From contig JBDHUP010000002.1 in assembly GCA_039809245.1 (NCBI GenBank), positions 11,188 through 75,187 on the forward strand: a stretch of DNA of 64,000 nucleotides, written 5' to 3'. Of the stretch, positions 23,341 through 41,951 are shown one piece after another. A model generated the notes under the pieces. That model was not told where the DNA came from. It was given only the letters and a program-made list of their open reading frames with translations, and searched no databases. The DNA comes from Minisyncoccia bacterium. GTDB taxonomy: Bacteria; Patescibacteriota; Minisyncoccia; Phycocordibacterales; UBA9973. The position numbers were made by a program, and so were the translations under genes. Position 1 is the stretch's first letter, and the number at the start of each line of letters is the position of its first letter.

Positions 23341-23427
23341 GGAGGTGTGGCTGAGTGGTTGAAGGCACTTGTCTTGAAAACAAGAGACCGTTTACGCGGT
23401 CCGTGAGTTCGAATCTCACCGCCTCCG
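23341..23427 (+). tRNA. tRNA-Ser (anticodon TGA), long variable arm; integration target
   Basis: Manual cloverleaf; anticodon loop CTTGAAA; acceptor GGAGGTG/CGCCTCC. Confidence 0.85.
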
Positions 23428-23429
23428 CA
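23414..23429 (+). repeat. attL: 16-bp tctcaccgcctccgca (3' end of tRNA-Ser), exactly repeated at 41904-41919
   Basis: Exact match found by eye. Confidence 0.65.
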
Positions 23430-23500
23430 TTGACAACTTGGTAGATACATGACCTGATTACTTATGTAACTAGTGCGACCCACAAACCTATCAAGTTACA

Positions 23501-23530
23501 AAAAAGAGCGATTCATTTCGCTCTTTTTTG
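23501..23530 (-). terminator. Hairpin agagcgattcatttcgctct plus T-run; terminator of the 189-aa gene. A near-identical hairpin lies at 41925-41942
   Basis: Seen in sequence. Confidence 0.55.
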
Positions 23531-24100
23531 TTATTTGTTTTCAAACTTTCTAACGATACGTTCATGTATCTGTATTAACTGTTCCTCAGTAAATATTTTG
23601 TCATATTTCCAGATCTTCCCTCCGAGAGAAAAAGCCTTCAAATAAGCTTCGCAATAGGTTTTTGGGTTTATAACCAAAACGTCATCTCTTTTCTCCCATC
23701 CTAAATCTAATTGGTAATCGTATTCTATTCTGTGTCCCATAGATCCAAGCCATTGGTGAGCAAGAATATTTCGCCAGTTATGAATATCTTCTGCTATTAA
23801 AGAAAACTTGAGATCATCCGTATCTCCATCAACAAAAGTTTCAAGGAATTGTTTGTAATCCTTGAACATCGAATTTGGACTTTCATTCGCAAAGAATACT
23901 TCGCCAACAGTAAGTGCCGATGCATGAACACCTAGAAACATCAAAGATGTTTGGTAGTGCGAAGGTGTCACTCCAATTTCATTATTGAAATAGTTTGCGA
24001 TGGAATTAAGTAGAGTTTCAATTGCCTCTACTGGATGACTCTTGAGTCGCTCAAGACGATGTTCTTGTGACTCTGAATTGTGTGAACGATTTTGACTCAT
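23531..24100 (-). CDS. Hypothetical protein with an R-x4-H motif (RNILAH), possible HEPN-like
   Basis: 189 aa; motif seen in translation; first gene inside the island. Confidence 0.3.
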   Translation of the reverse strand: MSQNRSHNSESQEHRLERLKSHPVEAIETLLNSIANYFNNEIGVTPSHYQTSLMFLGVHASALTVGEVFFANESPNSMFKDYKQFLETFVDGDTDDLKFSLIAEDIHNWRNILAHQWLGSMGHRIEYDYQLDLGWEKRDDVLVINPKTYCEAYLKAFSLGGKIWKYDKIFTEEQLIQIHERIVRKFENK

Positions 24101-24162
24101 ACTTTAATTTTAGCATTTTTCAAATTTGACTCCACACACTGTTTTTTAGAGAGTTTGAGTGT

Positions 24163-25542
24163 ATGAATAATATAAATGAAAGGTCTGTGGGAAATGCGAC
24201 CTTACCAAATAAACCACTTCCCGTTATTAAGTACTGTCTCTATGCTCGTAAATCAATGGAAGACGAAGAACGGCAAGCTTTGTCTATTGATTCACAGCTA
24301 AAAGAAATGAAGCAAATAGCAGAAAGAGATAATCTCTATGTCGCTACTATGCGAACAGAAGCTCACTCTGCAAAGAATTCTGGTCAACGTCCTGTCTTTA
24401 ATCAAATGATTGAAGAAATACGTGAGGGTAAATACAACGCAATTCTTACATGGAATCCAGATCGTTTAAGCAGAAATGCTGGCGATCTCGGTGTATTGGT
24501 TGATCTTATGGACAGTCAATTATTAGTTGAGATACGGACCTATAATCAAAAGTTTAGTAACTCACCGAATGAAAAGTTTTTACTCATGATACTTGGTTCT
24601 CAAGCAAAACTTGAGAATGACAATAAGAGTATTAATGTGAAGCGTGGTCTTCGTACCAAGGTTGAGATGGGATTATGGCCCACTGTTGCACCAACAGGAT
24701 ATCTAAACAACATGACTCGAGGCAAAGAGGGTCATGTGATTATCGATCCAATTCGTGCACACGTTGTAAAACAAATATTCCAACTCGCAGCAGAAGGCTG
24801 GAGTCATAGAAGAATCAGAAGATGGCTTCGTGATGATTTGGATTTCAGATCCAAAAACAATAAGCACTTGGCTATGAGTACGATACAGAAAATATTATGT
24901 ACTCCTTTCTATTATGGCGAGTTTGAGTTTCCTAGAAAAAGTGGCAATTGGTATAAAGGTATTCATACACCACTCATTACAAAAGAATTATATGATCAGG
25001 TGCGAGAGCAGACTGACGCAAAGAAAAGATTGCAATATGTGTACAAGAAAAACTTTGCCTATACCAAGTTAATGAAGTGTGGTTTGTGTGGTGGAAATGT
25101 TACCGCAGAGGAAAAGTTCAAGGCTCTCAAAGACGGATCTATCGCTCGATATGTTTACTATGGATGCACTCGATCCAAAGATCCATCATGTAAGATTAAA
25201 TATATTCGTGAGGAATATCTCATCCAATCACTTCGTGAGTTGGTTGATAAATTATCACTCGACGATCTTGGTTTGCGTGGTCAATTTGAGAAAGAGGTTG
25301 AACGTATCCACCGATTCAACTGTGATGTTATGGGCAAACCACCCATGTATACCGATTCTGAAGAGCAAGATGTTGATATTAAAAAGTATATTAAATACAT
25401 TCTTCTCGATGGTTCTATAGAAGAGAAACGAAACATACTCCTCAATCTGAAGAGTAAATTAATTCTCAAGGACGGCTTCGTTTATCTCGATGTTGTTACA
25501 GATGAAGACGAGAGTCTTATGCCTACTCCTGTAGGAGATTAA
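24163..25542 (+). CDS. Large serine recombinase (resolvase catalytic domain, recombinase domain, zinc ribbon, coiled coil)
   Basis: YARKS catalytic-serine motif, CGLCGG...C zinc ribbon, 459 aa. Confidence 0.85.
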   Translation: MNNINERSVGNATLPNKPLPVIKYCLYARKSMEDEERQALSIDSQLKEMKQIAERDNLYVATMRTEAHSAKNSGQRPVFNQMIEEIREGKYNAILTWNPDRLSRNAGDLGVLVDLMDSQLLVEIRTYNQKFSNSPNEKFLLMILGSQAKLENDNKSINVKRGLRTKVEMGLWPTVAPTGYLNNMTRGKEGHVIIDPIRAHVVKQIFQLAAEGWSHRRIRRWLRDDLDFRSKNNKHLAMSTIQKILCTPFYYGEFEFPRKSGNWYKGIHTPLITKELYDQVREQTDAKKRLQYVYKKNFAYTKLMKCGLCGGNVTAEEKFKALKDGSIARYVYYGCTRSKDPSCKIKYIREEYLIQSLRELVDKLSLDDLGLRGQFEKEVERIHRFNCDVMGKPPMYTDSEEQDVDIKKYIKYILLDGSIEEKRNILLNLKSKLILKDGFVYLDVVTDEDESLMPTPVGD

Positions 25543-26899
25543 TCCTTTTATCATTCAGCACTAGTCTACTTCTTAAGTGTCCCAGTAGCTCACGCTTCTC
25601 AAGCGGTGTACCTTCACGCAACACATACTTAGCATATTCCCGAGTATTCACATCATCTTCATTGATGCTGTATTTTGGTGTACCTTTTGTTGCTAGTCTC
25701 TGTAATCTATTGAATCGCTTGATTTCTTCTTCGAGTTTCATTCGCATACCCAACTCATTGATGCTTACCTTATCGATGACCTTAAATAATTCTTCGATCA
25801 GTTCTTCTTCTCGTATGTATTTGTTTTTACAATTCCTATCCTTGGACTTACTGCATGAATAGTAGACGTACTTTGCTGTTGTTCCATCTTTAAGTTCCTT
25901 ATATTTCTCTTGTGCTGTTATTCCTGATTCACACATCCCGCAGGTGAATAATTTAGTGAATGCAAACTCTCTATTTTCTCGCACTATCTTATCTCTCTTT
26001 AATCTATCTTGAGCCTTATCAAACAATTCCTTAGTGATCAACGGTTCGTGCGATCCTTGATACCACTGTCCTGAGTTTCGTGGATATTCAAATGGTCCGT
26101 AGTAGATTGGCATATCGAATATACGATAAACCCCCGACAGAGTCAGGGGTTTATTCCCTCGAGTATAGAAGTTCAAATCGAACCGTAACCAGTTATAGAC
26201 TTTTCTACCACTCCATCCTTCGAATGCAACTTTCTCAAACATCTGTTTTATGACATGAGCACGATCTGGATCGGGTATGATCTGACACTTCTTATCCATT
26301 CTTTTCTGATTGATGTATCCCAGCGGTGCCATTCCGGGCCAGAGACCTGATTCAACTCGGGTACGCAGTCCACGCTTCACATTGATACCTCGGTTATCGT
26401 TTTCGAGTTTAGCCTGACTTCCCAAAATCATCAGGAGGAATTTCTCGTTTGGATTGTTTGAAAATGTCTGACCGAATGTTCGTATCTGTAAAAGTTTTCC
26501 TGCATCCATCAAGTCCACAATTTTTCCAAGGTCTCCTGCGTTTCTACTGATACGGTCAGGTGCCCACGTGAGAATCGCATTATATTTACCATCTTTTATT
26601 TCTTCGATTATTTCATTGAATACTGGTCGCTGACCCGTTTCCTTTGCCGAATGGCTTTCTCTTTTCATTGCCACAATCTCCAAGCCCTCACGATCTGCCA
26701 ACTGAAGCATTTCTTTGATCTGGGAGTCGATAGAGAGGACTTGGCGTTCTTCTGACTCGCTCGATTTTCTGGCGTACAGACAATACTGTGTTTTTACGCT
26801 TTTAATATCTATTTGGGGCATCTCAAAGCCCTGTGGTGCTGTTATTTTCATACAACCCATTAATGACGCAGACCATTTGAGGAGTCTAGAGCGTCCCAT
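25523..26899 (-). CDS. Large serine recombinase, paralog of the preceding gene; convergent with a 20-bp 3' overlap
   Basis: CLYARKS motif, CGMC...C zinc ribbon; ~55-60% identity to the neighbour by eye; start probably at an internal Met (MKITAPQ or MPQIDIK). Confidence 0.85.
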   Translation of the reverse strand: MGRSRLLKWSASLMGCMKITAPQGFEMPQIDIKSVKTQYCLYARKSSESEERQVLSIDSQIKEMLQLADREGLEIVAMKRESHSAKETGQRPVFNEIIEEIKDGKYNAILTWAPDRISRNAGDLGKIVDLMDAGKLLQIRTFGQTFSNNPNEKFLLMILGSQAKLENDNRGINVKRGLRTRVESGLWPGMAPLGYINQKRMDKKCQIIPDPDRAHVIKQMFEKVAFEGWSGRKVYNWLRFDLNFYTRGNKPLTLSGVYRIFDMPIYYGPFEYPRNSGQWYQGSHEPLITKELFDKAQDRLKRDKIVRENREFAFTKLFTCGMCESGITAQEKYKELKDGTTAKYVYYSCSKSKDRNCKNKYIREEELIEELFKVIDKVSINELGMRMKLEEEIKRFNRLQRLATKGTPKYSINEDDVNTREYAKYVLREGTPLEKRELLGHLRSRLVLNDKRINLLQE

Positions 26900-26959
26900 T
26901 TCCTAGCTGTTGGTAACTAAATTACCCTTATTTTTCAATGTAAGCTAGGATACAGACCT

Positions 26960-28702
26960 ATGAAAACCTATGAACACTTGACTTTATATCTTGAATCTGA
27001 TAGACTCAAATTACAACATATGAGAAAAGATATACAAGAAAAACTTAAGGGGATGCCAGAATTACTCTCTATCGGTCAGGTAGCAGAGATTTTCTCTATC
27101 CACCAAGACACCCTACGAAACTGGGAAAAAGACGGAACACTCGTCCCTCTTAGAGTCGGACCACGAAAAGATCGAAAGTACCGCCCACAAGACATTGAAG
27201 CAATTGTCGACAAAATGGGTAGCAAATTGACCCTTCCTCAACTTGAATCGTTCCTCTGGAAGAGTGCTGACATTCTTCGAGGAAAAATCGACAGTTCTGA
27301 TTACAAGAAATATATCTTTGGTCTTCTTTTCTACAAGCGAATGAGTGACGTTTGGGATGAAGAGTTCAACGCTGTAATGAAAGAGTACGATGATAAAGAT
27401 ATCGCTCGTGCAGACTACAATCACCGTTTCCAAGTTCCTAAAGATTGTCGATGGGAAAAAATTACAGAGCAAGCAGAAAACATCGGACAAAAACTCAATG
27501 ATATTTTTGATAAATTAACCAATGCAAACAGTCCGAAACTAGATAAAATTTTTGATGACCTAGACTTTGCAAACAAAGACCGTTTTCCAAACGAAACACT
27601 TCAGCGACTGATCAATCACTTTTCTCAATACAACTTTGGTAATACTTACATCAGCTCTGATCTCCTTGGTGACGCATATGAATACCTGATCAAACAGTTT
27701 GCAGCGGATGCAGGTAAGAAAGGTGGAGAGTTCTACACGCCTCGTGAAGTTGAAAAAGTTATCGTGGGCATTCTAAAGCCACACCAGAAAGACCACATCT
27801 ACGATCCAACAGTTGGATCGGGTGGTTTCCTTTTGGAAGCATATGACTATTTGAAACAAAAGTCTGGTGAAAAGATCGCAAAGACTTTGTATCTATACGG
27901 TCAAGAACAAAACCTTGCAACCTTTGCGATTGCGAAAATTAACATGTTCCTCCACGGACTTGATAGTGCCGATATTCGCCGAGGTGACACATTGGCAAAT
28001 CCACAATTCCTTAATCAACAAGGAGGTCTTCAAACATTCGACATTGTAGTAGCTAATCCTCCGTACTCAATCAAAGACTATGAATGGGAGGCATTCAAGA
28101 ATAAGTTTGGTCGTTTGGAGGGATACGATGCACCACCCGAGAAAAATGCTGATTATGCTTTTGTCCTCCATATAATCAAATCAATGAACACTAATGGTCG
28201 TGCAGGTATTGTGTTGCCACACGGTGTCTTAACTCGAGGTAATGCTGAGGCACGAATCCGTGAACAAATACTTAAAAATGATCTTGTTGAGGCAATTGTT
28301 GCTCTACCATCAAAACTATTCTATGGGACAGGTATTCCTGCCGTAGTGGTTATCCTTAACAAAAACAAAGCTGAGGACAAGAAAAACAAGGTTTTGATTA
28401 TCGATGCCGAAAAAGATTTTCAGGAAGGCAAAAATCAAAATACTCTAAGACCTGCCGATATAAATAAGATTGTAAAAGCATTTAATGGATACGAGGATAT
28501 CGATAAATACGCATGTGTTGTAACATTGAAAGATATAGAGGAGAAAGATTTTAACCTTAATATCCGAGAGTACATTGATTCATCTGAAGAAGAGGAGGTT
28601 ATTGATGTGAAAAAAGTAAGAAGTGAAATTGCTTCACTTAAAAAAGAATTATCAAAAGCAGATGCTTTAGTTGAAAAGTATTTAGATGAGCTTGGCTATT
28701 AA
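26960..28702 (+). CDS. hsdM: Type I R-M N6-adenine DNA methyltransferase HsdM carrying an ~85-aa N-terminal excisionase/MerR-type HTH extension
   Basis: HsdM N-domain (LTLPQLESFLWKSADILRG), motif I DPTVGSGGFL, motif IV NPPYS; N-terminal LSIGQVAEIFSIHQDTLRNWEKDG HTH. Confidence 0.9.
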   Translation: MKTYEHLTLYLESDRLKLQHMRKDIQEKLKGMPELLSIGQVAEIFSIHQDTLRNWEKDGTLVPLRVGPRKDRKYRPQDIEAIVDKMGSKLTLPQLESFLWKSADILRGKIDSSDYKKYIFGLLFYKRMSDVWDEEFNAVMKEYDDKDIARADYNHRFQVPKDCRWEKITEQAENIGQKLNDIFDKLTNANSPKLDKIFDDLDFANKDRFPNETLQRLINHFSQYNFGNTYISSDLLGDAYEYLIKQFAADAGKKGGEFYTPREVEKVIVGILKPHQKDHIYDPTVGSGGFLLEAYDYLKQKSGEKIAKTLYLYGQEQNLATFAIAKINMFLHGLDSADIRRGDTLANPQFLNQQGGLQTFDIVVANPPYSIKDYEWEAFKNKFGRLEGYDAPPEKNADYAFVLHIIKSMNTNGRAGIVLPHGVLTRGNAEARIREQILKNDLVEAIVALPSKLFYGTGIPAVVVILNKNKAEDKKNKVLIIDAEKDFQEGKNQNTLRPADINKIVKAFNGYEDIDKYACVVTLKDIEEKDFNLNIREYIDSSEEEEVIDVKKVRSEIASLKKELSKADALVEKYLDELGY

Positions 28703-28708
28703 TACAAT

Positions 28709-30292
28709 ATGACTATTACTGATTACAAAACAGAAAGAGAGAATGATGTAAGTAAAATTAAGTCTTCTGTCCACCCTAAAAAGGTTGTCGTTGCAGGGCC
28801 TGGGACAGGTAAGAGTTTTTTGTTTCAAGAACTTATCAAAGAGAAGAAAAAGTCTGGTAAGACTGATTTTGTTGCTATTACATTCATAGGTAAATTAGGT
28901 GATGCACTTGCTGATGACCTCTGTGGTTTAGCTGAAACTATGACTATGCATGGTTTTGCGAGAAGATTTGTTCTAGAAAAGTGTAAGGGCTGGATTTATT
29001 ACCCTAGAATGTATGACATCATTAAAGCTGATTTAAAAAGCGAAGGTATTGATGATTTTGAAATTGGAGACGACAATTACAAAAAGAAAACTCTTTTTTA
29101 TAAAGCTGTTGGTGATGAAGATGTTGTTCATTACGCAATCCAGATATGTGAAAAGGACAAATCAAAGATTCCTACTCACGATTTAATATTAATTGATGAG
29201 TTCCAGGACTTTAATGAAAAAGAATCGCAATTTGTTGATTTGCTTGCTGAGAAAAATGAGATTGTGATAGTTGGCGATGACGATCAGGCACTCTATGAAT
29301 TCAAAGGCTCATCTCCAGCTTATATTAGAAGCAAACACCACACAAGCAATACAGATTTTGAAAGTCATACGTTGAGATTTTGTTCGAGATGTACTGATGT
29401 TGTGATTAAATATTTTCATGCTCTCGTGGAGAAATTTAACCTTAAAGATTCTACAAAAAATCGGATTGAAAAGGATTATATATGTTACGTGCCTGACAAA
29501 GAAAAAGATTCTAAAGCGAACCCACAAATACATCTTATAAAAAATTGCCCTAGTGGAATGATTGCTTTTAAGATAAGAGCTGAGTTAGAAAAACTTGTTA
29601 CCGAGCAAAAAATTAAAGACATTCTCATTATTGGTGAAGGAAGATCTTGCAAAGCTATCCTTGAATCGATAGCAAAGCAACTGAAACACTACGGATTTAA
29701 AAATGTAGATTACGGTAAATCTAATGGCTATCTAGATACTAAGCAGAATATTGTTGATGCTTATAAGTTCTTAGCGAATGATCCTGAGTCAGTTTTGGGT
29801 TGGCGAATACTTGATAATCCAACAGATCAAACTGAAAAAGAAAGGCATCTAAAAAATTCTAAGACCTTAAAAGTAATTATTTCAGGTAAATCTGCTGAGA
29901 TTAAAAAACTCAAAGATACTGCTATTGTCGAACTAGAAAAGACTATAGAAAATAATCACGTTGATGATCCCATCCTCAAGAGATCTGTTTTTATTGATGA
30001 ATTACGAGACCGAAACATTGTTCTCTCAAGACCCCTTGGAAACTTAAATATTACAGTATGCAATATTCTGAATTCGAAAGGACTTGGTGCTGATGTTGTA
30101 TTTTTGGTCGGATTTGACGATGGTAAATTTCCTGCAAAAAACATACCGACTGACAGCGAAATTTATCAAATGCTTGTTGCTATTACAAGATCGAAGAAGC
30201 GAATGTATCTCGTTAATACAACTGGAAAGAAAACATCAGTCTTTCTCGATTGCTTGGATGCCAGTGACTTAAGCACAAAAGAAATTAAGTAA
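28709..30292 (+). CDS. Compact UvrD/Rep-like SF1 helicase embedded between hsdM and hsdS
   Basis: Walker A AGPGTGKS, motif II LILIDEFQDFN, motif III VGDDDQALYEF, C-terminal motifs SKGLGADVVFLVG and VAITRSKKRMYL; 6 bp after hsdM, 1 bp before hsdS. Confidence 0.75.
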   Translation: MTITDYKTERENDVSKIKSSVHPKKVVVAGPGTGKSFLFQELIKEKKKSGKTDFVAITFIGKLGDALADDLCGLAETMTMHGFARRFVLEKCKGWIYYPRMYDIIKADLKSEGIDDFEIGDDNYKKKTLFYKAVGDEDVVHYAIQICEKDKSKIPTHDLILIDEFQDFNEKESQFVDLLAEKNEIVIVGDDDQALYEFKGSSPAYIRSKHHTSNTDFESHTLRFCSRCTDVVIKYFHALVEKFNLKDSTKNRIEKDYICYVPDKEKDSKANPQIHLIKNCPSGMIAFKIRAELEKLVTEQKIKDILIIGEGRSCKAILESIAKQLKHYGFKNVDYGKSNGYLDTKQNIVDAYKFLANDPESVLGWRILDNPTDQTEKERHLKNSKTLKVIISGKSAEIKKLKDTAIVELEKTIENNHVDDPILKRSVFIDELRDRNIVLSRPLGNLNITVCNILNSKGLGADVVFLVGFDDGKFPAKNIPTDSEIYQMLVAITRSKKRMYLVNTTGKKTSVFLDCLDASDLSTKEIK

Positions 30293-30293
30293 T

Positions 30294-31418
30294 ATGAATA
30301 ATCCTCTTAAACAAAAGAATATTCCGAAAGGATGGGAATACGGTTCTCTTGGAGATTTTATTGTAGATATTAAAGATGGAGGAACTCCTTCTAGGCGTAA
30401 AGGTGAATATTTTGGTGGTGGTATACCATGGGTTGTCATCAAAGATATAAAATCTAGAATTTACTCTACAAACGAAACCCTTTCTAAATTAGGCATTGAA
30501 AATTCAAGTGCTAAGGTTTTTCCTGCAGGCACAGTTATTTTATCATTTGGTGCAACGATTGGAGAAGTTGGTATCGCAGAAGTTGATTTAGCTACAAAGC
30601 AAGGTATTGCCGGAGTTTTGCCAGATGTTTCAAAAATTACAACTGAATATTTATATTTTTTATTACAATCTCAAAAAAAGTTACTCAATCAAATGGCTAC
30701 AGGAAGTACTATTAAGGAAGTACGTCCAAATATTATCAAGAAAATTAATATACTTGTCCCCCCAATAAAAGAGCAGAAGAAAATTGCTGATATTTTGTTA
30801 TCTGTTGATGAAGAGATTCAAAAGGTTGAAGAGATAATTTCCGCGACTGAAAAATTAAAAAAAGGGCTGATGTCAGGATTATTTACTAAAGGAATTGGTA
30901 ATAATAAATTTCAAAAAACAAGAATCGGAGATATATTAACTTTAGAATACGGCAAACCATTAAAAGCATCAGATAGAGTCTCTGGAGATATACCAGTTTT
31001 TGGTTCAAACGGTATAGTTGGATATCATGATACAAGCTTAGTAAAAGGACCTGGTGTTATTGTAGGAAGAAAAGGAGGGGCTGGAGAAGTGATGTTTTCA
31101 GAAGTAGATTTTTATCCCATAGATACAGCTTATTTTGTAAAAACGGATTTTAATAAAAAATTTATTTATTATTTATTAGTAAATACAAACTTAAAAAAGC
31201 GTTCCGGAGGTAGTGCTGTTCCTGGATTAAATAGAAATGACGCATATTCTAAAATAGTGATTCTTCCAAAAAAAGAAGGTCAAGAGATAATTGTAAACAT
31301 TTTATCTTCTGTAGATAGAAAAATTATTACTTGTCAGAAATTAAAAACAAAATTATTAGAACTTAAAAAGGGATTAGTGTCGGATCTCCTGAGTGGAAGT
31401 AAAAGAGTAAAAATATGA
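30294..31418 (+). CDS. hsdS: Type I R-M specificity subunit HsdS (two target-recognition domains)
   Basis: Duplicated TRDs with conserved repeats (PPIKEQKKIADIL / PKKEGQEIIVNIL). Confidence 0.85.
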   Translation: MNNPLKQKNIPKGWEYGSLGDFIVDIKDGGTPSRRKGEYFGGGIPWVVIKDIKSRIYSTNETLSKLGIENSSAKVFPAGTVILSFGATIGEVGIAEVDLATKQGIAGVLPDVSKITTEYLYFLLQSQKKLLNQMATGSTIKEVRPNIIKKINILVPPIKEQKKIADILLSVDEEIQKVEEIISATEKLKKGLMSGLFTKGIGNNKFQKTRIGDILTLEYGKPLKASDRVSGDIPVFGSNGIVGYHDTSLVKGPGVIVGRKGGAGEVMFSEVDFYPIDTAYFVKTDFNKKFIYYLLVNTNLKKRSGGSAVPGLNRNDAYSKIVILPKKEGQEIIVNILSSVDRKIITCQKLKTKLLELKKGLVSDLLSGSKRVKI

Positions 31419-32473
31419 AATTACTATTTTTAGATTCAAATATATTCCTTAATTTCTATGATTTTCATGATGAAGATCTAACTCAACTTGCGAAGTTGGT
31501 GGATGTAATAAAGGCTAAAGAAATAAAGCTCTTTTTGACTACTCAAGTTTGTGAGGAAATTAAGAAAAACAGAGAGGCTCGATTAAAGGTTGCGTATGAG
31601 AAAATCGTAGATTCAAAAGTAACTTTAGCTATTCCTCCTTTTTGTAAACACTACGATGAGTATTCTGATATTAAGCGTGCTCAAAATATTCTTGATCAAT
31701 TAAAATCTGAACTAAGTAAGAAACTTTGGGAAGATATACAAAATCACACACTACAAGCTGATAAAATTATTAACGACCTTATCAATGAGAGTAGTATAAT
31801 TGATTCAGATAAATATTTGCCTCAGGCAATACAAAGGCATCAATTAGGTAGACCGCCTGGAAAGAAAGATAGGAGTTATGGCGACGAGATTAACTGGGAG
31901 GCAATTTTAGCTGAAGTGTCTGGTGAGGGTGAATTTATACTTCTTAGTAAAGATGGCGACTATGCTCATGCAATAGATGATCAGTCGCTAAAAGACTATC
32001 TTGTTGATGAATGGAAGAAGAGTCATCCAGATAATGAAATATTTTTCTACAAAAGCTTAACTAAATTTTTCACTGAGCATGATATCAAGATCGAGTTGCG
32101 TATAGAACAGGAAAAAGATGAACTTGTTCGAGACTTGATTAACAGTCACAACTTCTTAAATACACACATTATAGTAAGTAGTCTCTCTAAATACAGTAGT
32201 TTTACAGATGATCAGGTAAGAGGTATAGCAAATGCTTTGAGTGAAAATAGTCAGGTTAGATGGATTATTGATGATGCCGATGTAAAGGAATTTTATAGAG
32301 ACAATCTTCTTCCTAGGTTAGACTTATTTGATTCCGAGACACAGCAAAGTATTAGAGGCTTAATTCAAGGTGAAGAAGTTGCGGATTTGTCTGCCGAATT
32401 GAATAATCTTGAAGAAAAACTTAAAGAAGAAAAAGATGAAGAAAGTGATAATGAAGAAGATATTCCATTTTAA
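31415..32473 (+). CDS. PIN-like domain protein (predicted nuclease) with acidic C-terminal tail, embedded between hsdS and hsdR
   Basis: Four spaced acidic positions in a PIN-like pattern (LFLDSNIF, TTQVCEEI, GDEINWEAIL, LLSKDGDY); ATGA overlap with hsdS, 9 bp before hsdR. Confidence 0.45.
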   Translation: MKLLFLDSNIFLNFYDFHDEDLTQLAKLVDVIKAKEIKLFLTTQVCEEIKKNREARLKVAYEKIVDSKVTLAIPPFCKHYDEYSDIKRAQNILDQLKSELSKKLWEDIQNHTLQADKIINDLINESSIIDSDKYLPQAIQRHQLGRPPGKKDRSYGDEINWEAILAEVSGEGEFILLSKDGDYAHAIDDQSLKDYLVDEWKKSHPDNEIFFYKSLTKFFTEHDIKIELRIEQEKDELVRDLINSHNFLNTHIIVSSLSKYSSFTDDQVRGIANALSENSQVRWIIDDADVKEFYRDNLLPRLDLFDSETQQSIRGLIQGEEVADLSAELNNLEEKLKEEKDEESDNEEDIPF

Positions 32474-32482
32474 CTAAACAAT

Positions 32483-35395
32483 ATGAAATTCAACGAATTA
32501 TATACAATAGAAAAACACGTTATAAAATTCATCCAAGAAAAACTTGGCTATGAGTTTATTCCTGCTGAAGAGTTTTCAAAACTTCGTGCTTTCGAAAACG
32601 AGGTTATTATCACTTCACACCTTATTGAATCTGTTCAAAAGATAAATGAGGTTGATGAAACTTTGGCTCAAAGTGTCGTTCGTGAGATCAAGAAACTTGA
32701 TACCAATGAAGCATTTTTACTTACGATGCGAAATGGTGTAAATCTTAAAGATCCTGCAACTGGCAAGAATCGTGATTTTCAGATTGTTGATTTTGATAAT
32801 GCCGACAACAACCGATTTGTTGTTACAAGTCAGTTCTACTTCGAGGGCACCACAGAAAACATTCGCCCTGACGTGATGATTTTCTTGAACGGTCTACCTA
32901 TCTCTGATATTGAAGCAAAAAGCCCCACCGCTTCTAGCTCGGTAAGCTTTGAGAATGCTATTGATCAGATCAAGCGATACGAAAAAGTTGCATCAAAACT
33001 ATTTCTCCCTAACTGCTTTAATATTGCAACAGACGGACTAAAAACAGTGTATGGAGCAACTTATTCTCCAAAGCAATACTTTTTGACTTGGCGAGAAGAT
33101 CCACATAGTGAATCAAAGATGTTTGAAGATGAGCTTGATTCAACACTCTACTTCCTATTTGAAAAAGAAAGACTCCTTGATGTCTTGAAGAACTTTATTG
33201 TATTTGAAAAGAAGAAAGACGGATCTATTAAAAAGATAGCTCGATATCAGCAACTGTACGCTTCTAATAAAATTGTAGAGAGAGTTAAGGATGGTGACCA
33301 TAAAAAAGGTCTTATTTGGCATACTCAAGGATCTGGAAAGACTCTGACCATGTTTTTTACTGCTTGGAAGCTTCGATATGCACCTGAGCTTAAAAACCCA
33401 AAGGTATTTATTCTCATCGACCGTATTGATCTTGATGATCAAGTATTTGAAGAGTTTGAAGCTTGGGGTGGTCAGAACCTCATTCGAGTTGAGTCTCGTA
33501 AGGATCTCGAAAAGAAAATCAAAGGTGCAGACCGAGGTATCTTTATTTCAACTATCCAGAAATTTACTGAACTAGAAGAAATTGAAAGTATTGATGGAAA
33601 TGTCATCGTTCTTTCTGATGAAGCCCACCGAGATAACGAGGGAGTATCTGCTATCAAGATGCGTAATGCATTTAAAGATGCGTTCTTCTTTGGGTTCACT
33701 GGAACTCCTATTGATAAACTAACTCTTAATACACACCGCAACTTTGGTGAAGATGGAGAGCGATATCTTGATTATTATTCTATTCAACAAGCTATTGATG
33801 ATGGTGCGACGTTGCCTGTTACCTATGAAGCTCGACTTTCTAAATTCTTTATTGACGAGGAAACCGTAGACAAAAAGTTCAATGAACTAACTACTGATCT
33901 GAGCAAAGAACAGAAAGAACTCCTTACAAAGAGGTACGGAAAGAAGGAAGCTCTGGTAAAGCTAGAGAAACGAATGGAAGCAGTCATTCAGGATATTGTT
34001 GAACATTACAAGCTGTATGTCCTTCCAAACGGGTTTAAAGCACAGATTGTGTGTTATGACCGAGAAGCAACAGCAAAGTATAAAGACTTGCTTGATAAGC
34101 TTGTGCCATCAGAATGGTCAGAAGTTGTATATTCTCCCGCTGATCCAAATAGTGATAGCGACGACCTAAAAAAATACAACACGAACAAACAAAAGCGAGA
34201 GAAGATTATTGAACAATTCAAAGACCCAACTCATCCTCTAAAGTTTCTACTTGTCTGTGACATGCTTTTGACTGGTTTTGATGCTCCAGTTGAACAGGTA
34301 ATGTACCTTGATAAGCCACTCCGAGACCATAATCTTCTACAAGCTATTGCTCGTACAAACCGTGTCTACCCAAACAAAGGGTGTGGAAAGATTATTGACT
34401 ACTATGGTGTGACTAAGAACCTCTATGATGCTCTCAATTTTGATGAGAGTGTGGTTGATAGTGCGATGATCAATATTGATAAGTTGAAAGAAGACTTCAA
34501 AAAGGTGCTTGATGAAGTCATGAGTCTTTTCGAGGGGGTTAATATTGAAGATCCTTCAATTGAAAACCTTCGTCGATGTCTCAAGATATTTATCGACAAT
34601 CAAAGCAAACAACAATTCTTCAAAGACAAATATGGTCGTCTAAAGATGTTGTTTGAGATACTTTCTCCCGATCCATTCCTTATTGAGTATCTACGCAAAT
34701 TTGAGTGGATTACCAGTTTCTATCTTGCTTTTAGTAAAGAATTTCAACCAGAAGGAGTTGATGCGTTTTCTCTTGCTGAATACGGAGAGAAAATCAAAAA
34801 CCTTATCCAAGACAAGATTGATTATGAGGGAATCACTAAGAATTTCCGTGAGCTATCGGTACACGATCTCGCTACACTTAACAAACTAGACAAACTTCCT
34901 GATGAAGATAAGGCTCTTAATCTTGAAAAGATGCTTAAACGTGAGATCTCTATCAACATAGACACACACCCAGCATTTAAAGGATTTGGTGAGCGACTTT
35001 CCTCAATTAGACAAGAGTTTGAGAAACATCAGATTGATCTTGCTGAACGTATCAAGCGTTACTACGAACTTCTGAACGATATCAAGACCAAAACTGAAGA
35101 AGCAAAGGAACTTGGTTATTCTCTCCATGAATACGGACTCTTTGTAATTTCTGAGGAATTCATTAGCGAATCAGATCAAGCGGTTATAAAAGAATTCATC
35201 AAGGAAATGTCATCTCGATTGGAGGATGTTCTTGATGAGGGATGGCAAAACTCATCAAAGCGTGAGGAGTTTATAAAAGAAGCCAAGAGAACATTGCAGG
35301 AGTTAATTCTTAAAGACTACAAGAACAAGATTCAGATTTCTGACTTCCAAAAATATCTCAATCGTTTGATTGATGTAGTTATTAAAAAATTCTAA
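32483..35395 (+). CDS. hsdR: Type I R-M restriction subunit HsdR (SF2 translocase/endonuclease)
   Basis: 970 aa; Walker A HTQGSGKTLT, DEAH-box VLSDEAHR, helicase motif VI QAIARTNR. Confidence 0.9.
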   Translation: MKFNELYTIEKHVIKFIQEKLGYEFIPAEEFSKLRAFENEVIITSHLIESVQKINEVDETLAQSVVREIKKLDTNEAFLLTMRNGVNLKDPATGKNRDFQIVDFDNADNNRFVVTSQFYFEGTTENIRPDVMIFLNGLPISDIEAKSPTASSSVSFENAIDQIKRYEKVASKLFLPNCFNIATDGLKTVYGATYSPKQYFLTWREDPHSESKMFEDELDSTLYFLFEKERLLDVLKNFIVFEKKKDGSIKKIARYQQLYASNKIVERVKDGDHKKGLIWHTQGSGKTLTMFFTAWKLRYAPELKNPKVFILIDRIDLDDQVFEEFEAWGGQNLIRVESRKDLEKKIKGADRGIFISTIQKFTELEEIESIDGNVIVLSDEAHRDNEGVSAIKMRNAFKDAFFFGFTGTPIDKLTLNTHRNFGEDGERYLDYYSIQQAIDDGATLPVTYEARLSKFFIDEETVDKKFNELTTDLSKEQKELLTKRYGKKEALVKLEKRMEAVIQDIVEHYKLYVLPNGFKAQIVCYDREATAKYKDLLDKLVPSEWSEVVYSPADPNSDSDDLKKYNTNKQKREKIIEQFKDPTHPLKFLLVCDMLLTGFDAPVEQVMYLDKPLRDHNLLQAIARTNRVYPNKGCGKIIDYYGVTKNLYDALNFDESVVDSAMINIDKLKEDFKKVLDEVMSLFEGVNIEDPSIENLRRCLKIFIDNQSKQQFFKDKYGRLKMLFEILSPDPFLIEYLRKFEWITSFYLAFSKEFQPEGVDAFSLAEYGEKIKNLIQDKIDYEGITKNFRELSVHDLATLNKLDKLPDEDKALNLEKMLKREISINIDTHPAFKGFGERLSSIRQEFEKHQIDLAERIKRYYELLNDIKTKTEEAKELGYSLHEYGLFVISEEFISESDQAVIKEFIKEMSSRLEDVLDEGWQNSSKREEFIKEAKRTLQELILKDYKNKIQISDFQKYLNRLIDVVIKKF

Positions 35396-35397
35396 CT

Positions 35398-35967
35398 ATG
35401 AAAAAGCATATAGAACTTCACAAAAGAAAAGTTCCATATACGCTCAAAGTAAGTAAGCGAGCAAAAAGACTCCGCCTCGCAATTTATTGTGATGGTGCTT
35501 TTGTTGTGACCACTCCTCGAAATGTTGAGGTTTCAGTTATTGAGAAATTCATCATACAAAGATCTCAGTGGGTTATCGATAAGTTAGATTACTTCAGCCA
35601 ATTCTCTGATGTATTCAAAAAGAAGAATACTCAAGCAGAATATTTGAAGTACAAAGAAGAGGCTCTATCTTTAGCCGAGAAAAAGGTTAAGAAATTCAAT
35701 AAGATTTACAAATTCTCTTACAACAAGATTAATATCAAAAATCAAAAGACTCGCTGGGGTAGCTGTTCTAAAAAAGGTAACCTTAATTTCAACTATAAAA
35801 TTGCGTTGTTGCCTGAACGTCTTGCTGAGTACATAGTCGTACACGAACTCTGCCACCTTGGACAATTTAATCACTCTCAGAAGTTTTGGAATTTGGTAGC
35901 CAAGGCTATACCTGACTATCTAGAGATCAAGGAGGAGTTAAAAAGAAGTGGTTTAAGATTTCATTAA
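35398..35967 (+). CDS. DUF45/COG1451 (YgjP-like) zinc metallohydrolase, a known companion of Type I R-M operons
   Basis: HELCHL...H metal-binding motif near the C-terminus; 2 bp after hsdR. Confidence 0.65.
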   Translation: MKKHIELHKRKVPYTLKVSKRAKRLRLAIYCDGAFVVTTPRNVEVSVIEKFIIQRSQWVIDKLDYFSQFSDVFKKKNTQAEYLKYKEEALSLAEKKVKKFNKIYKFSYNKINIKNQKTRWGSCSKKGNLNFNYKIALLPERLAEYIVVHELCHLGQFNHSQKFWNLVAKAIPDYLEIKEELKRSGLRFH

Positions 35968-35968
35968 T

Positions 35969-36214
35969 ATGGATGACTGGAGCTTCAACATACCCAAAAA
36001 GATTTTGAGAGTATTATTGATTGGTGCAGTCATACTTGCTGTTCTCTACGGGGTTTTTACTGGTGACTCAAAGAAAGGTGCTGATTTTTATATGAAGGAG
36101 GTTAAATTTATTATGACTCCAATAATAAATAAAATGCAAAATCGTATGGAAAAGATATTCGATAGAGCACTTAATAAAACTCAAGAGAACCAGAGTGAGA
36201 ATGTCGAAAACTAA
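35969..36214 (+). CDS. Small single-TM protein
   Basis: 81 aa ORF, 1 bp after the preceding gene. Confidence 0.3.
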   Translation: MDDWSFNIPKKILRVLLIGAVILAVLYGVFTGDSKKGADFYMKEVKFIMTPIINKMQNRMEKIFDRALNKTQENQSENVEN

Positions 36215-37701
36215 CCGAACAATATTCCACCTGAAACTGGATTATTCTCAATAATTTTAAGAACCACGATGGAAAAAGCGTCAGCTAAGTCATCGTGTTT
36301 TTCTTTTCCAAATCCAAGAAGTTGCTCGATTAATTCTTCACAACCGCTTTCAGGAAATAAAATGCGTCCGTCCTTTAACAATGGAGTCGTGAGTCGTAAT
36401 CGTGCACCTTTGTCGTTTCTTCCTGTTGGCACACCCTCAATGTCATACTTTTGACTCTCAAAGAATTGGATCAATGCTTTTTGATATCCAACATCTTCCA
36501 CAAAAAGTTTTACCCGATTGTGTTTCATTTTCTCGGTTGCCACCAACGCTTTGATAAATTCTGCGTGTACAGGAAATGAACTCCTTTTGTTATAAGGATG
36601 CTTTTGAATATAGATTTTCATATTTTTCCCTGTGCCGTATACATATGCAACGACAATAGCGGTGCAGTCAGCTGAATCTTTTTCACTTACCGCCAAATCG
36701 ATACCTATACAGATACTTCTAAATCCATCGGCAGGCATTTTGTCATAGAATGTGATCCATTCAGGCAAGACAATCTGCTCGTCAGTCGCAATGATCTGAA
36801 GCATATACTCACGAAACCACGCAACATCATCCATAGTTTTTTCTCGCTCAGCTTCAACATCTTCTGGAGCAGGATACTTGCCGGGCCATAAAGGATTGCC
36901 CTTGGGATCAACAATAGGATATTCACGGTATACAGCCTTAATGCGACTCATTTCACCATTTTCGATTTTCTTTTGTAGTCGCTTCAGCACAGAGTCCTCA
37001 TGAAGTAAGTTACCCACAGCAATGATTCTCGTTTTCTTGGTTCCTGCAGGGATTACTTCACTTACAAGCCAGTTGAATGTTTTATCACGACCAACACGAG
37101 TTTTAACCGATTGGGTATCTTCAATGTCGTCTATGATAATAAGGTCGGGGCGATGTTGATCGTGTCTTACTCCACGGATGCTTTGCTCTACAGAGCTGAT
37201 CATAATCTTCACATTGAGTCTCTTGATAATGAGTGCCGTAGCATTACCGAGATTGTTCTTTTCTTCTTCAAAAGGTCCAAGGTCTTTTCGCAGAAGGTCA
37301 TTATTTAAAAGCTGACTTTTTATATTCAAAAGATACTGCCGTGCTTTTTGCTCAGTTTGACCACAAATAACAATAAGCTTTCTTTGCTGTATACCGAGGA
37401 TAGACCATAGGACATACGCTGTTGAAATGATGGTTGATTTTGCTAAACCACGGAATGCAACAAACACTGCAAGTTTAATGCGATCATCTTCAAGAATACG
37501 AAACATCTCCTCGTGAAAGGGTGCTGTCTCATACTCCATGTATTGGTGAAAATATATTGGGAAAAAGAATTCAAAACTATTTTGTACAGTATGTTTTCGT
37601 ACTGTTTGATCAATAAGAATTTTCTCAAAAATATCTTCACTATTCCTTTGTGTCTTTAAACTTGGCATGTTTGCGTAATGATGAAAGTTTGAGTGCGGCA
37701 C
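36211..37701 (-). CDS. Phage terminase large subunit (ATPase plus RNase-H-like nuclease)
   Basis: Walker A-like RGLAKST, Walker B DLIIIDD, C-terminal nuclease acidic residues (IGIDLAVSEKDSAD). Confidence 0.75.
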   Translation of the reverse strand: MPHSNFHHYANMPSLKTQRNSEDIFEKILIDQTVRKHTVQNSFEFFFPIYFHQYMEYETAPFHEEMFRILEDDRIKLAVFVAFRGLAKSTIISTAYVLWSILGIQQRKLIVICGQTEQKARQYLLNIKSQLLNNDLLRKDLGPFEEEKNNLGNATALIIKRLNVKIMISSVEQSIRGVRHDQHRPDLIIIDDIEDTQSVKTRVGRDKTFNWLVSEVIPAGTKKTRIIAVGNLLHEDSVLKRLQKKIENGEMSRIKAVYREYPIVDPKGNPLWPGKYPAPEDVEAEREKTMDDVAWFREYMLQIIATDEQIVLPEWITFYDKMPADGFRSICIGIDLAVSEKDSADCTAIVVAYVYGTGKNMKIYIQKHPYNKRSSFPVHAEFIKALVATEKMKHNRVKLFVEDVGYQKALIQFFESQKYDIEGVPTGRNDKGARLRLTTPLLKDGRILFPESGCEELIEQLLGFGKEKHDDLADAFSIVVLKIIENNPVSGGILFG

Positions 37702-38071
37702 GAATGAGCTTCTTTTCTTCTTTCGTCAGAGGCTTTTCTTTTGATTCAATACTTCCTGAAAGCTCAAGTTTGTTGCTGTACCGTGGATTGTGAGTTGAGA
37801 GATATAACCGAATAGCCTCTATCTTTCTCTCACTAATCAGAGCAAAGAGTTGGTTCTCAGCAACATCTGACATAAATTTTCTACCCTCGTTAAGAGACTC
37901 ATCAATTTGCCGTTCAAACTTCTTACTATTCGCAATCCATCGATAAACCGTAGCTCGTGATACACCAACTTTTTGACAGGAAGTTTCAAGAGTGGGCGTA
38001 CGCTTGAGCTGGTCGAGCAAAGCTTCTTTGATACGCGATTGCCTTTGTTGTATTGAATCTTTTCTACTCAT
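37640..38071 (-). CDS. Terminase small subunit-like HTH protein
   Basis: N-terminal HTH (VGVSRATVYRW) typical of phage TerS; immediately upstream of terL. Confidence 0.45.
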   Translation of the reverse strand: MSRKDSIQQRQSRIKEALLDQLKRTPTLETSCQKVGVSRATVYRWIANSKKFERQIDESLNEGRKFMSDVAENQLFALISERKIEAIRLYLSTHNPRYSNKLELSGSIESKEKPLTKEEKKLIRAALKLSSLRKHAKFKDTKE

Positions 38072-38826
38072 AGTTTTTCTGCTTTGACTCCAGACAGCTT
38101 TTCAAAACGATCAATGACTGTTTGACAGTATTCAATATCCATCTCGACTCCGATGCATATACGCTTTGTCTGCTCGCACGCAAGCAATGTTGTACCTGAA
38201 CCTAGAAACCCATCAAAAACCACATCTCCGATCCGTGTACTATTTAGTACAAGTCTACGAATAAGATCGATTGGCTTTGTCGATGGATGCATTTTGCTTT
38301 TATTTGGTTTTGGACAAACCAAGACACTCTTGTCTTTTGATTTCAAAAACTCATGTGTGCCATGCCACCCGTATGCGATTAGTTCATGTTGAGGTGCATA
38401 GTCCATACGACCGATGACTGCATGAGTTTTCACCCAAATGAGAAGTTGTCCAAATTTAAGACCTGCTTCGTGCATTCCTTCACGCAAAGCAAATACCATC
38501 TTGTCTGAATTAAAGATATAAAAGCTATTTTTACGATCAAGGTGGGGTCTAATAGCCTCAATCCAATCACGGGTGAAAGTTTTATATTCCAGATCGCTTT
38601 GTAAGTGATCGTTGAGTATTGGTTTATTCTTGGCGAGTGTCTGAAATCCTTCCTTACTTTCAGCTACGGCTACTCCATAGGGTGGGTCAGAGATTACTGC
38701 TTTGATTTTGTGTGTACTAACAAGCCTTGCGATCATATCCTTGTTTCGTGAATCTGCACACAAAAGCAAATGCTGTCCTAACCGAAATGCATCGCCGTAT
38801 TTAATTGAGCTTTGTGACTTTTTCAT
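38068..38826 (-). CDS. DNA methyltransferase (beta-class N6A/N4C, DPPY)
   Basis: Motif IV SDPPYG precedes motif I FLGSGTT. Confidence 0.8.
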   Translation of the reverse strand: MKKSQSSIKYGDAFRLGQHLLLCADSRNKDMIARLVSTHKIKAVISDPPYGVAVAESKEGFQTLAKNKPILNDHLQSDLEYKTFTRDWIEAIRPHLDRKNSFYIFNSDKMVFALREGMHEAGLKFGQLLIWVKTHAVIGRMDYAPQHELIAYGWHGTHEFLKSKDKSVLVCPKPNKSKMHPSTKPIDLIRRLVLNSTRIGDVVFDGFLGSGTTLLACEQTKRICIGVEMDIEYCQTVIDRFEKLSGVKAEKL

Positions 38827-40078
38827 TGGATATTTTCTTAAATCTATTAATAATTACCTGACAGAAAACTGGTTCAATTTCTGCAAGGAATGCTCGACGT
38901 TTAAGTGCTTCACAGGCAACCAGAATACTCCCTGATCCAGCCGTCAGATCAAGAATCGTATCACCAGGTTTACTACACCGTCTGATGCTTTTTTCGTATA
39001 AAGTCGGTGGCTTCATTGTCGGATGCTGATATTCAGAACTAGGCAGTCTTTTCGCAAGCCATATCTGGAACATGTCCGAAATATCATCAAGTAATCTATT
39101 ACCAGAGGATATTTCCTTATTCTGAAATTCAGTCAGATTCTTAACTTTGTCAGATAGATAGGGCTTACCTCGAACTCCATACATACAAAGCTCTACGGCA
39201 CGATTAAAAGCGATTTTAGGGGTTGGATTATGTTGAGACTTTGCCCACAAACAGAGTCGTTTGAAATCAATACCTACTGCTTTGAAAACATCCTGCATCA
39301 TCCCTAGGTATTTCTCATCCAGCCATGCAAAAGCATGGCAATCGTTCTTCGATACCCCCAGTGCGTTTTTTAAGATACTTGCAAGAAACTCCTTGTACTC
39401 AGCATCTGATTTTTTATCATTGATAGTTCCTCCGTAGTTCTGCTTGCCACCTAATCCCGCCGAGTAATCTACGCCTATGTTATATGGAAAATCTATATTG
39501 ATGAGATCTATCCGCTCAGAACCCACTAGCTCTGTAACGGTTTCTTTTTTAGTACTATCTCCACAAATTAAAACGTGACTCCCGAGTGAAAATTTATCAC
39601 CCAATTTAATGTCAGTTTTTTGAGCTTCCTTGAGTTCCTTTTCAAGATCAATATCATCGTCATCTACTTCGAGGTTGTCATCGAAAATATTAGAAAGATC
39701 GAATGAATCAAAACCCGCAGTAAGGAGTTCGTCGAGATCAAAATCTCGTGCAAGCTTTTCAAAATCCCAAGACGCACCGCTTCGATTTGAGGTGAGTAGG
39801 TAATCTTTAAATTCTTTTTCTGTAAGAGTTCTGTTTGGAACTCTTACCTCTATTTCTTCATCTTCTCGACCAAGAAGAGACAAGACCATCACTCGTTGGT
39901 TTCCAGCAACCAGAGTGCCGTCTGTGTTGATACACGGCAATTCTGCCAGATCAAATTTCTTGAGACTTCGCTTGAGTCCCTCAAGTTGTGTAGGCGAAAG
40001 TTTGCGAGGATTCTTTTCGTATCGAATCAAATCCTTCACTTTACGTTTCTCCGTATGCCAAACTAATTTTTTGCTCAT
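38801..40078 (-). CDS. ParB-like nuclease domain fused to a DNA methyltransferase
   Basis: N-terminal ParB/Srx-like segment (EKNPRKLSPTQLEGLKRSLKKF...AGNQR), C-terminal MTase motifs (DFPYN, LTAGSGS). Confidence 0.75.
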   Translation of the reverse strand: MSKKLVWHTEKRKVKDLIRYEKNPRKLSPTQLEGLKRSLKKFDLAELPCINTDGTLVAGNQRVMVLSLLGREDEEIEVRVPNRTLTEKEFKDYLLTSNRSGASWDFEKLARDFDLDELLTAGFDSFDLSNIFDDNLEVDDDDIDLEKELKEAQKTDIKLGDKFSLGSHVLICGDSTKKETVTELVGSERIDLINIDFPYNIGVDYSAGLGGKQNYGGTINDKKSDAEYKEFLASILKNALGVSKNDCHAFAWLDEKYLGMMQDVFKAVGIDFKRLCLWAKSQHNPTPKIAFNRAVELCMYGVRGKPYLSDKVKNLTEFQNKEISSGNRLLDDISDMFQIWLAKRLPSSEYQHPTMKPPTLYEKSIRRCSKPGDTILDLTAGSGSILVACEALKRRAFLAEIEPVFCQVIINRFKKISNEKVTKLN

Positions 40079-40171
40079 AGTTATATTGGTTAGCTAATAA
40101 TGTAGATACGTGTATATCTGTATTGAGCATAGACCTAAAGAAAACAGCTGTAATCTGTAACTTTAGAGGGT

Positions 40172-41943: not shown

Positions 41944-41951
41944 TTTCTTTT

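Follow-up and report, generated by a model that had tools for sequence, protein, structure and literature searches.

A convergent, overlapping pair of large serine recombinase genes at the tRNA-proximal end of a Patescibacteria island, a possible two-gene recombination module

We analysed a stretch of 64,000 nucleotides (hereafter the window; contig JBDHUP010000002.1 of assembly GCA_039809245.1, positions 11,188 to 75,187 of the forward strand) from a Minisyncoccia bacterium, a member of the Patescibacteria, in which two genes for large serine recombinases (LSRs) lie tail to tail at the left end of an island of about 18.5 kb (about 23430-41919). The first gene, LSR-A (24163-25542, + strand), encodes 459 aa and the second, LSR-B (25523-26899, - strand), 458 aa; they are called A and B below. 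Their 3' ends overlap by 20 bp (25523-25542): read directly in the sequence, the TAA stop of A occupies 25540-25542 and the TAG stop of B, on the reverse strand, 25523-25525. A first-pass annotation, made from the sequence alone, had described two paralogous LSRs in this arrangement and judged them by eye to be about 55-60% identical. The exact open reading frame coordinates and stops agree with that description, and BLASTP gave 56% identity over 422 aa (E = 8e-170). No LSR copy besides A and B was found in the window. The evidence presented below is comparative throughout.

Both proteins matched the Pfam families Resolvase, Recombinase and Zn_ribbon_recom (PF00239, PF07508 and PF13408) above gathering thresholds, with E = 4e-21 for A and 2e-19 for B in the case of PF00239, and both matched the PHROG integrase family phrog_95. 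The motifs YARKS and DR[LI]SR were present in A and B of all seven complete pairs that were checked in this and related elements, and so were the four zinc-ribbon cysteines, located at residues 306, 309, 335 and 343 in A and at 320, 323, 349 and 357 in B. In an AlphaFold2 model of A (predicted local distance difference test score 79.6), the catalytic domain, the alphaE helix, the recombinase domain and the zinc ribbon are visible, together with a short helical hairpin at about residues 376-416, between the zinc-ribbon strands and the terminal strands 433-442, which in the model fits a short coiled-coil motif embedded in the zinc-ribbon domain. The top full-length fold matches of this model in the PDB were the SPbeta, Bxb1, LI and PhiC31 integrases; the closest solved relative of A and B is SPbeta SprA, and no Ccr protein. 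Hence the YARKS motif, the recombinase domain and the Cys4 zinc ribbon that had been noticed at first reading were recovered in both proteins by the Pfam and motif checks, and the coiled-coil noticed with them fits the hairpin modelled in A. The earlier impression that neither copy carries an inactivating change at catalytic positions also held, with the motifs kept in 7/7 pairs.

The divergence between A and B is uneven along the proteins, with identities of 70% in the catalytic region, 83% in alphaE, 47-57% in the DNA-binding domains and 35% in the coiled-coil. The ratio of nonsynonymous to synonymous substitution rates (dN/dS) across related elements was 0.02-0.09 for A, a value from which the comparison with the near-identical locus L086 was excluded as a codon-register artefact at a contig end. 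For B the ratio was ~0.03 where dS was unsaturated; elsewhere the proportions of nonsynonymous and synonymous differences were pN 0.11-0.13 vs pS 0.77-0.83. By these sequence criteria A and B are both intact LSRs, both under strong purifying selection and both presumably functional.

With no terminator to separate the two convergent genes, the transcripts of A and B must be mutually antisense, at the least across the overlap. A search for RNA structure or a terminator at the overlap returned nothing significant (fold z-scores 0.05 and 0.95), and the sole terminator candidate nearby was a weak hairpin inside A, on the strand of B. On its other side, B is separated from hsdM, the first gene of a Type I restriction-modification (R-M) operon, by 60 bp (ATG of B at 26899, ATG of hsdM at 26960). 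The B orthologs of two related loci (L081 and L082) begin at the residue equal to the internal Met17 of B, and the true start of B may be either Met1 or Met17, the latter giving a gap of 108 bp. The first-pass annotation had given the 60-bp gap correctly, and had added that the promoter region of B is shared with the R-M operon. Both the gap and such sharing are incidental, because the cargo next to B is exchangeable and differs by element.

The island lies directly 3' of an intact tRNA-Ser(tga) gene (23341-23428, + strand; ARAGORN, Rfam tRNA 59.3 bits), its integration target. The 3' end of this gene provides the left copy of a perfect 16-bp direct repeat, TCTCACCGCCTCCGCA, found by repeat search and representing the core of the left attachment site, attL (23414-23429, +). 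The right copy, the attR core (41904-41919, +), marks the far boundary and is followed by a terminator hairpin (41920-41946) and then by ordinary host genes. Exactly two copies of the repeat occur in the window, against 0.00 expected. The island thus has the layout of a tRNA-integrated one, being placed directly after an intact tRNA gene and carrying the repeat of the tRNA 3' end at its far boundary. From these boundaries, the site of the circular form, attP, is predicted to read …GTGTACTCATGG-TCTCACCGCCTCCGCA-TTGACAACTTGGTAGATACATGACC…, and the empty chromosomal site, attB, would consist of the tRNA-Ser 3' end-TCTCACCGCCTCCGCA-AAAAAAGAGCGATTAATCGC.

Within the left boundary lies a conserved arm of ~105 bp (23430-23534, +) that begins TTGACAACTTGGTAG and is 93-96% identical to the arms of L003, L006 and L068, which follow different tRNAs. 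It contains a terminator hairpin (23498-23531) and the motif GACCCACAAAC (23477-23487, +), which by motif count occurs only twice in the window and is invariant ~50 bp inside every left end. The island has a non-coding right end of ~310 bp, and a block within it (41597-41753, +) holds the second copy of GACCCACAAAC (41665-41675) and is 77.5% identical (blastn) to positions 14559-14715 of L078. Upstream of A, a region reading TTGACT ... TAGAGAGTTTGAGTGT-ATG (24125-24162, +) is kept in 7 loci, and on the far side of the module, upstream of B, conservation runs as far as …TGTTGGTAACTA (26900-26920, - strand), where the homology between elements stops. When the left end was compared with the whole window and repeat searches were added, only the 16-mer at 41904 and the 11-mer at 41665 were returned. 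A second set of att-like sites in the window, for which the first-pass annotation had proposed a search, was thus not found, and there is neither space nor an att-like site between A and B.

We compared the window with 172 loci gathered from scans of genome, metagenome and viral collections and from homolog look-ups; several of these loci may be one population assembled repeatedly, and the family as a whole has at least 8,000 members. The convergent A/B pair was found in at least nine distinct elements from Patescibacteria or viral contigs: the window, L002, L003 (CALRFT010000007.1), L004 (CAYORS010000006.1), L081 (Ga0597080_0000076), L082/083/103 (L082 being Ga0224524_1000002), L086/094/100, L096 and L097. 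Across these pairs the identity to the window falls as low as 70% for the A-type and 74% for the B-type proteins, and the overlap measured 20 or 23 bp in 7/7 complete pairs checked. Because it recurs in independent assemblies, the layout is neither a product of chance nor an assembly artefact. The homology to the window comprises the last tRNA bases, the left arm, A and B, and ends ~20 bp upstream of the ATG of B; the flanking genes of the related loci are not syntenic with those of the window. Depending on the genome, the module sits after tRNA-Ser(tga), (gct), (cga) or (gga) or after tRNA-Trp(cca), the shared sequence beginning at …CCG/CA-TTGACAAC. One viral contig from IMG/VR (L086) carries the element of the window itself, with A, B, HsdM, HsdR, YgjP and TerL 94-98% identical. 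In L093 the host flank is syntenic with the window and the island is a different one. A decayed pair was observed in a 5-kb island (L078), whose boundaries are marked by a 22-bp direct repeat from the end of the tRNA at that locus, and in L081 phage tail and lysis genes run straight into the arm, without a tRNA.

Neighbour-joining trees of ~45-87 sequences recovered A and B as exclusive sisters in 0/100 bootstraps. The phylogeny of the two copies, proposed at first reading as a check, thus identifies them as old, non-sister lineages: on these trees they are old paralogs and not the result of a recent duplication, and an ancient union of two LSR lineages is the likely origin of the pair. The B clade holds phage-type elements in which a block of two methyltransferase (MTase) genes, TerS and TerL (MTase-MTase-TerS-TerL) runs directly into a single B-like LSR (viral contig L088 and, more distantly, L089). 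Dozens of relatives with a single LSR have a tRNA gene in opposite orientation ~175 bp beyond the stop codon of the LSR, which is the geometry of B. It follows from this geometry that A fills what is normally a short spacer, of ~175 bp, between the integrase stop and the end of the att site.

Among loci flanked on either side by 3 kb or more, a second LSR was present in 10/11 A-lineage loci and in 2/69 loci of other family members (Fisher p = 4e-10); after removal of duplicates, 8/9 A-lineage loci retained a second LSR (p = 2e-8). The deeper relatives of the A lineage all share their element with a second LSR, in varied arrangements. In L091, a B-lineage LSR stands 42 bp upstream of an A-lineage LSR in the same direction, and this pair reads toward tRNA-Arg. 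In L092 the second LSR is 6 kb away, across the same packaging block, and in L084/085 a distant LSR lies 2.4 kb downstream, adjoining tRNA-His.

These observations suggest that A and B very probably constitute the integration/excision module of an element that targets tRNA 3' ends. Recombination of attP with attB by A and B is predicted, on the indirect grounds of the 16-bp repeat and of the same module standing at different tRNAs. The crossover would take place at or beside the ...CCGCA that closes the tRNA, and the tRNA would stay intact because a crossover at its end leaves a 16-bp direct repeat. B holds the usual place of a single integrase, as the last gene and reading toward the tRNA, and A, which belongs to a sister lineage that is almost never seen without a second LSR, stands where other elements have the spacer. 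More tentatively, we propose that A and B act jointly on the att sites, as CcrA and CcrB do, a proposal whose chances reach even at best. It is suggested by the dependence of the A lineage on a partner, by the long purifying selection on both genes and by the domain-wise pattern of identity, in which the catalytic and alphaE (multimerisation) regions are conserved and the DNA-binding and coiled-coil regions have diverged. The heteromeric recombinase considered in the first-pass annotation is our best guess at the mechanism, a guess weakened by the relatives that retain one LSR of the pair (L093 and L087). The overlap of the A and B transcripts could couple, balance or oppose their expression. 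We infer that the island is currently mobile and that the overlap may have a regulatory role. As a whole, the reading of A and B as a cooperating two-gene recombination module of phage-derived or satellite-like, defence-carrying integrative elements of Patescibacteria appears to us evenly balanced between being right and being wrong.

Several observations weigh against cooperation. One locus (L093) has A only, which nests inside the clade of paired A genes and keeps the same left arm, and another (L087) has B only, with a 231-aa gene in the place of A and again the same left arm; one LSR may therefore suffice, or these elements may be immobile. The identities of A and B to those of the window are discordant between elements (94/81 in L002 and 70/84 in L004), meaning that the genes reassort, which argues against tight co-adaptation. 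In L097 a 248-aa gene (1806-2552) lies between A and B, so that the overlap is not obligatory and the A/B junction can accept cargo. For two subunits that have to work together, convergent transcription would be a strange arrangement, and a similar distribution of divergence over the domains would be expected of any two LSR paralogs. Mobility of the island has its own difficulties. No excised or empty-site sequence was found in sequence scans, and neither the left-arm junction nor the right-end block, sought as exact patterns in viral contigs, revealed an excised or attP form. The right end is visible in two elements only, the window and L078: repeats of the tRNA 3' end, sought in L001-L006, L082, L093, L094 and others, were found in L078 only, the other loci ending at the limit of their flank.

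The same solitary loci, L093 and L087, which both stand next to tRNA-Ser(tga), speak for regarding A and B as independently sufficient integrases, both kept for a wider tRNA or host range or for redundancy. Such a view agrees with most family members being single integrases, with paired elements occurring at at least five different tRNA genes and with the free reassortment of A and B. It accounts poorly for an A lineage that is almost never alone (10/11 vs 2/69) and for dN/dS values below 0.1 across saturated dS, which are unexpected for redundant genes; a single att arm is available beside the pair, and L093 and L087 are secondary losses that may be immobile. We consider independent action unlikely, though far from negligible. 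Rather improbable, in our judgement, is a division of roles in which one protein, probably B, is the integrase and the other a partner that controls directionality in the manner of a recombination directionality factor (RDF), or in which the two are expressed alternately, convergent transcription acting as a toggle between integration and excision. Zero intergenic space and the missing terminator would generate antisense transcripts, the overlap is kept in the 7/7 complete pairs checked, the coiled-coil, which is the directionality-controlling element of LSRs, is the most diverged region at 35%, and no conserved small RDF-like gene accompanies the module (the helix-turn-helix domain HTH_17 occurs in some elements only). 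However, all catalytic residues are kept in both proteins, which is needless for a purely regulatory one, the element L097 tolerates a gene between A and B, and the L091 lineages are co-directional. An extension that combines heteromery with such a switch seems decidedly improbable: A and B would form an obligate heteromeric integrase, each paralog reading a different half-site of a non-symmetric att site (the tRNA-like arm vs the GACAACCTGTTAG arm), and an antisense switch would set the A:B ratio and with it the direction, with no RDF. If true, it would amount to a self-contained, two-protein, direction-switchable integrase system from bacteria of the candidate phyla radiation (CPR).

Tandem insertion at tRNA sites is common, and together with the old, non-sister status of A and B (0/100 bootstraps) it makes the fusion of two elements plausible as an origin of the pair. 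That the pair is today the functionless fossil of two tandem or nested elements is nevertheless very improbable, given that there is only one pair of att repeats and no att-like sequence between or around the genes, that elements whose A is no more than 70% identical still have the same overlap, purifying selection acting on both genes, and that the cargo is variable on one side only. The suggestion of the first-pass annotation that two nested elements each keep their integrase is consequently not supported for the present structure, the two genes being inherited together. Site-specific recombinases make some Type I systems phase-variable, and the pair adjoins hsdM and hsdS, so that a pair of DNA invertases driving phase variation of the neighbouring R-M system might be imagined. 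This idea has next to no chance of being correct and is effectively refuted: the operon has a lone hsdS with no convincing or significant inverted repeats in or around it, unlike an hsdS shufflon, the R-M operon is swapped for unrelated cargo elsewhere with A and B conserved, and the proteins are LSRs of the integrase type, not small invertases.

The cooperating pair that we favour has its nearest counterpart in CcrA/CcrB (and ccrDE) of the staphylococcal cassette chromosome (SCC, SCCmec). There as here, one element carries two paralogous LSRs, insertion is site-specific at the 3' end of a conserved host gene with flanking direct repeats, and a conserved recombinase module stands beside highly variable cargo, often R-M or other defence systems (PMC11470126). 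The ccr genes form a co-directional operon, whereas A and B are convergent with a 3' overlap of 20-23 bp and only the distant L091 is co-directional; SCC targets rlmH (orfX) or rimL in Firmicutes hosts, whereas the present module targets the 3' end of tRNA-Ser or tRNA-Trp in Patescibacteria. CcrA and CcrB are reported to act as a heterotetramer (PMC10581047), whereas the cooperation of A and B is putative: their co-occurrence is suggestive, and L093 and L087 urge caution. The module works like an SCC-type cassette but departs from the co-directional operon and the rlmH target by which Ccr membership is recognised.

In domain architecture and fold A and B resemble SPbeta SprA, PhiC31, Bxb1 and LI/A118, and a phage-like context is found here too: the window has TerL, TerS and an HNH endonuclease, and L081 has genes for tail and lysis proteins. 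Phage systems such as SPbeta SprA/SprB combine one integrase with a small, unrelated RDF; here a second full-length, catalytically intact LSR is conserved, with no conserved RDF candidate beside it. Most tRNA-integrated islands use a single tyrosine integrase, where the present one has two serine recombinases. Otherwise the island resembles the tycheposons and tRNA-integrated islands in lying directly after a tRNA, with a duplicated tRNA 3' end, a tRNA-proximal integrase and modular, variable cargo (bioRxiv 10.1101/2020.12.28.424599). The LSR triplets of streptococcal integrative and conjugative elements (ICEs; Tn1806-type) offer a parallel to the A and B clades, in that paralogous LSRs are kept together and each position forms its own clade; they are adjacent genes at the ICE extremity that are not described as convergent or overlapping, and they disrupt the protein-coding genes mutT, traG and hsdM, in place of the tRNA ends used here (PMC4701971). 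The multi-LSR modules that the literature searches turned up were of two kinds, the ccrAB/ccrDE operons and the triplets of streptococcal ICEs, both co-directional; no convergent pair was among them, and nothing from Patescibacteria. The remark made at first reading that a convergent, overlapping pair is unusual is thereby confirmed, and, as far as our literature searches reach, an LSR pair of this layout has not been described before.

Serine integrases are key tools of genome engineering, and CcrAB is the only well-studied natural system with two LSRs. A second, unrelated and widespread two-LSR module would provide a fresh system for the division of half-sites, RDF-less control of direction and asymmetric reading of att sites, with a different gene layout, compact proteins of ~460 aa and natural targets in conserved tRNA 3' ends. 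It would also be a concrete vehicle by which R-M systems, further defence genes and phage-like modules travel among Patescibacteria, a group with a little-known mobilome. If the enzymes act independently, what remains is a well-documented but ordinary integrase module.

From left to right, the island consists of the left arm, orf189, A, B, the Type I R-M operon, a YgjP-like peptidase gene, a packaging block and the right end. The orf189 gene (23531-24100, - strand; 189 aa) lies between the left-end hairpin and the promoter region of A and is specific to the window: no homolog was found in the related loci, which all have position 23532 joined directly to ~24125-24142, and it had no match in Pfam, PADLOC or PHROG. 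The exchangeable defence cargo (26960-35967, +) comprises hsdM, a GajB-like UvrD helicase gene, hsdS, a gene for a PIN_12 protein, hsdR and the YgjP-like peptidase gene. The phage-type module that follows (36211-41594) contains TerL, TerS, a DNA MTase, a ParB-MTase and orf205, all on the - strand, together with an HNH endonuclease gene (40878-41594, +); TerL matches phrog_38 with E = 1e-80. No capsid, portal, tail or lysis genes were found within the island, which is thus not a complete temperate phage. Lacking genes for capsid, tail and lysis, the island of 18.5 kb is related to phages but reduced, satellite-like or decayed, and a packaging block without structural genes could reflect a satellite-like lifestyle in CPR bacteria. 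The MTase-MTase-TerS-TerL block that precedes the single LSR of L088 and L089 is present in L092 too.

The cargo beyond B varies by element, from R-M systems of Type I, Type II or a Type III-like kind to helicases, and is always of the defence type. A Type I R-M system is present in the window, in L081 and in L086, a Type III-like Mod/Res in L003, a C5-methyltransferase with an NgoFVII-like enzyme in L004, and a helix-turn-helix protein with a 1585-aa helicase, a WYL protein and a Cas4-like protein in L082. Within the operon of the window, the GajB-like helicase gene (28709-30292, +) is an extra gene between hsdM and hsdS, and the PIN_12 gene (31415-32473, +) lies between hsdS and hsdR, the C-terminal part of its product matching the PADLOC candidate PDC-S34. 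In the near-identical L086 the hsdS is another one, the PIN gene is missing and nothing between hsdM and hsdS matches the helicase.

The N-terminus of HsdM (26960-27240, +) carries a MerR/HTH_17 domain (aa ~35-85) fused before HsdM_N. This domain is encoded by a free-standing gene of 69 aa adjoining B in L082, L083 and L103, and it matches a separate position in L087 and several other loci, where further fusions to HsdM may be involved. A role as a regulator or as an excisionase-like factor is conceivable. The domain was rejected as a constant third part or RDF of the module, being missing beside B in L002, L003, L004 and L081.

The right-end block (window 41597-41790 / L078 14559-14715) is common to two otherwise different islands. 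Within it are a stem AATGAGACA…TGTCTCATT, the motif GACCCACAAAC, an extended -10-like element TGCTAGAAT, a hairpin GGGTACCATACCC and an intrinsic terminator aaaacccgaaagggttttt; it had no match in Rfam and may encode a small RNA or be bound by an accessory protein. The T-arm of tRNA-Ser recurs in inverted form, over 12 nt (GTGAGATTCGAA, 41819-41830), about 75 bp inside the right end; by BLAST statistics (E ~0.4) the match may be due to chance. Possession of the left arm does not distinguish between the two LSRs, as A-only L093 and B-only L087 both keep it.

Some further features were observed in the related loci. In L097, the 3' end of the 248-aa gene between A and B overlaps that of B by 17 bp. 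In L081 (9830-9900), the lysis genes are followed by …CGGGACATCGTCACCGCA/GGGACAACCTGTTAGTTTTGATGACCC and then by A, a GGGACA direct repeat flanking the core; the arrangement fits a candidate intact attP. The decayed pair of L078 (10340-10470) is joined at a perfect 24-nt palindrome, CCGAACGAGAAA/TTTCTCGTTCGG, located at the invariant PNEKF codons of A and B. Either the convergent paralogs, which together form a quasi-palindrome, would have lost its centre by a symmetrical deletion, or the junction would be an assembly chimera.

Reverse transcriptase genes were detected in the cargo of several related islands (L078 10916-14554, L003 14416-15558 and L004 16633-17682). That of L078 carries the LGNLTSQ motif of the type found in diversity-generating retroelements, and near it lies a gene of 625 aa. 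A template-like repeat in the vicinity, …NDWANPGNEWNPDNKFVF, echoes the C-terminus of the product of this gene, …GGWANPGDEWPPDYKFVF, which suggests that the cargo of L078 includes a diversity-generating retroelement.

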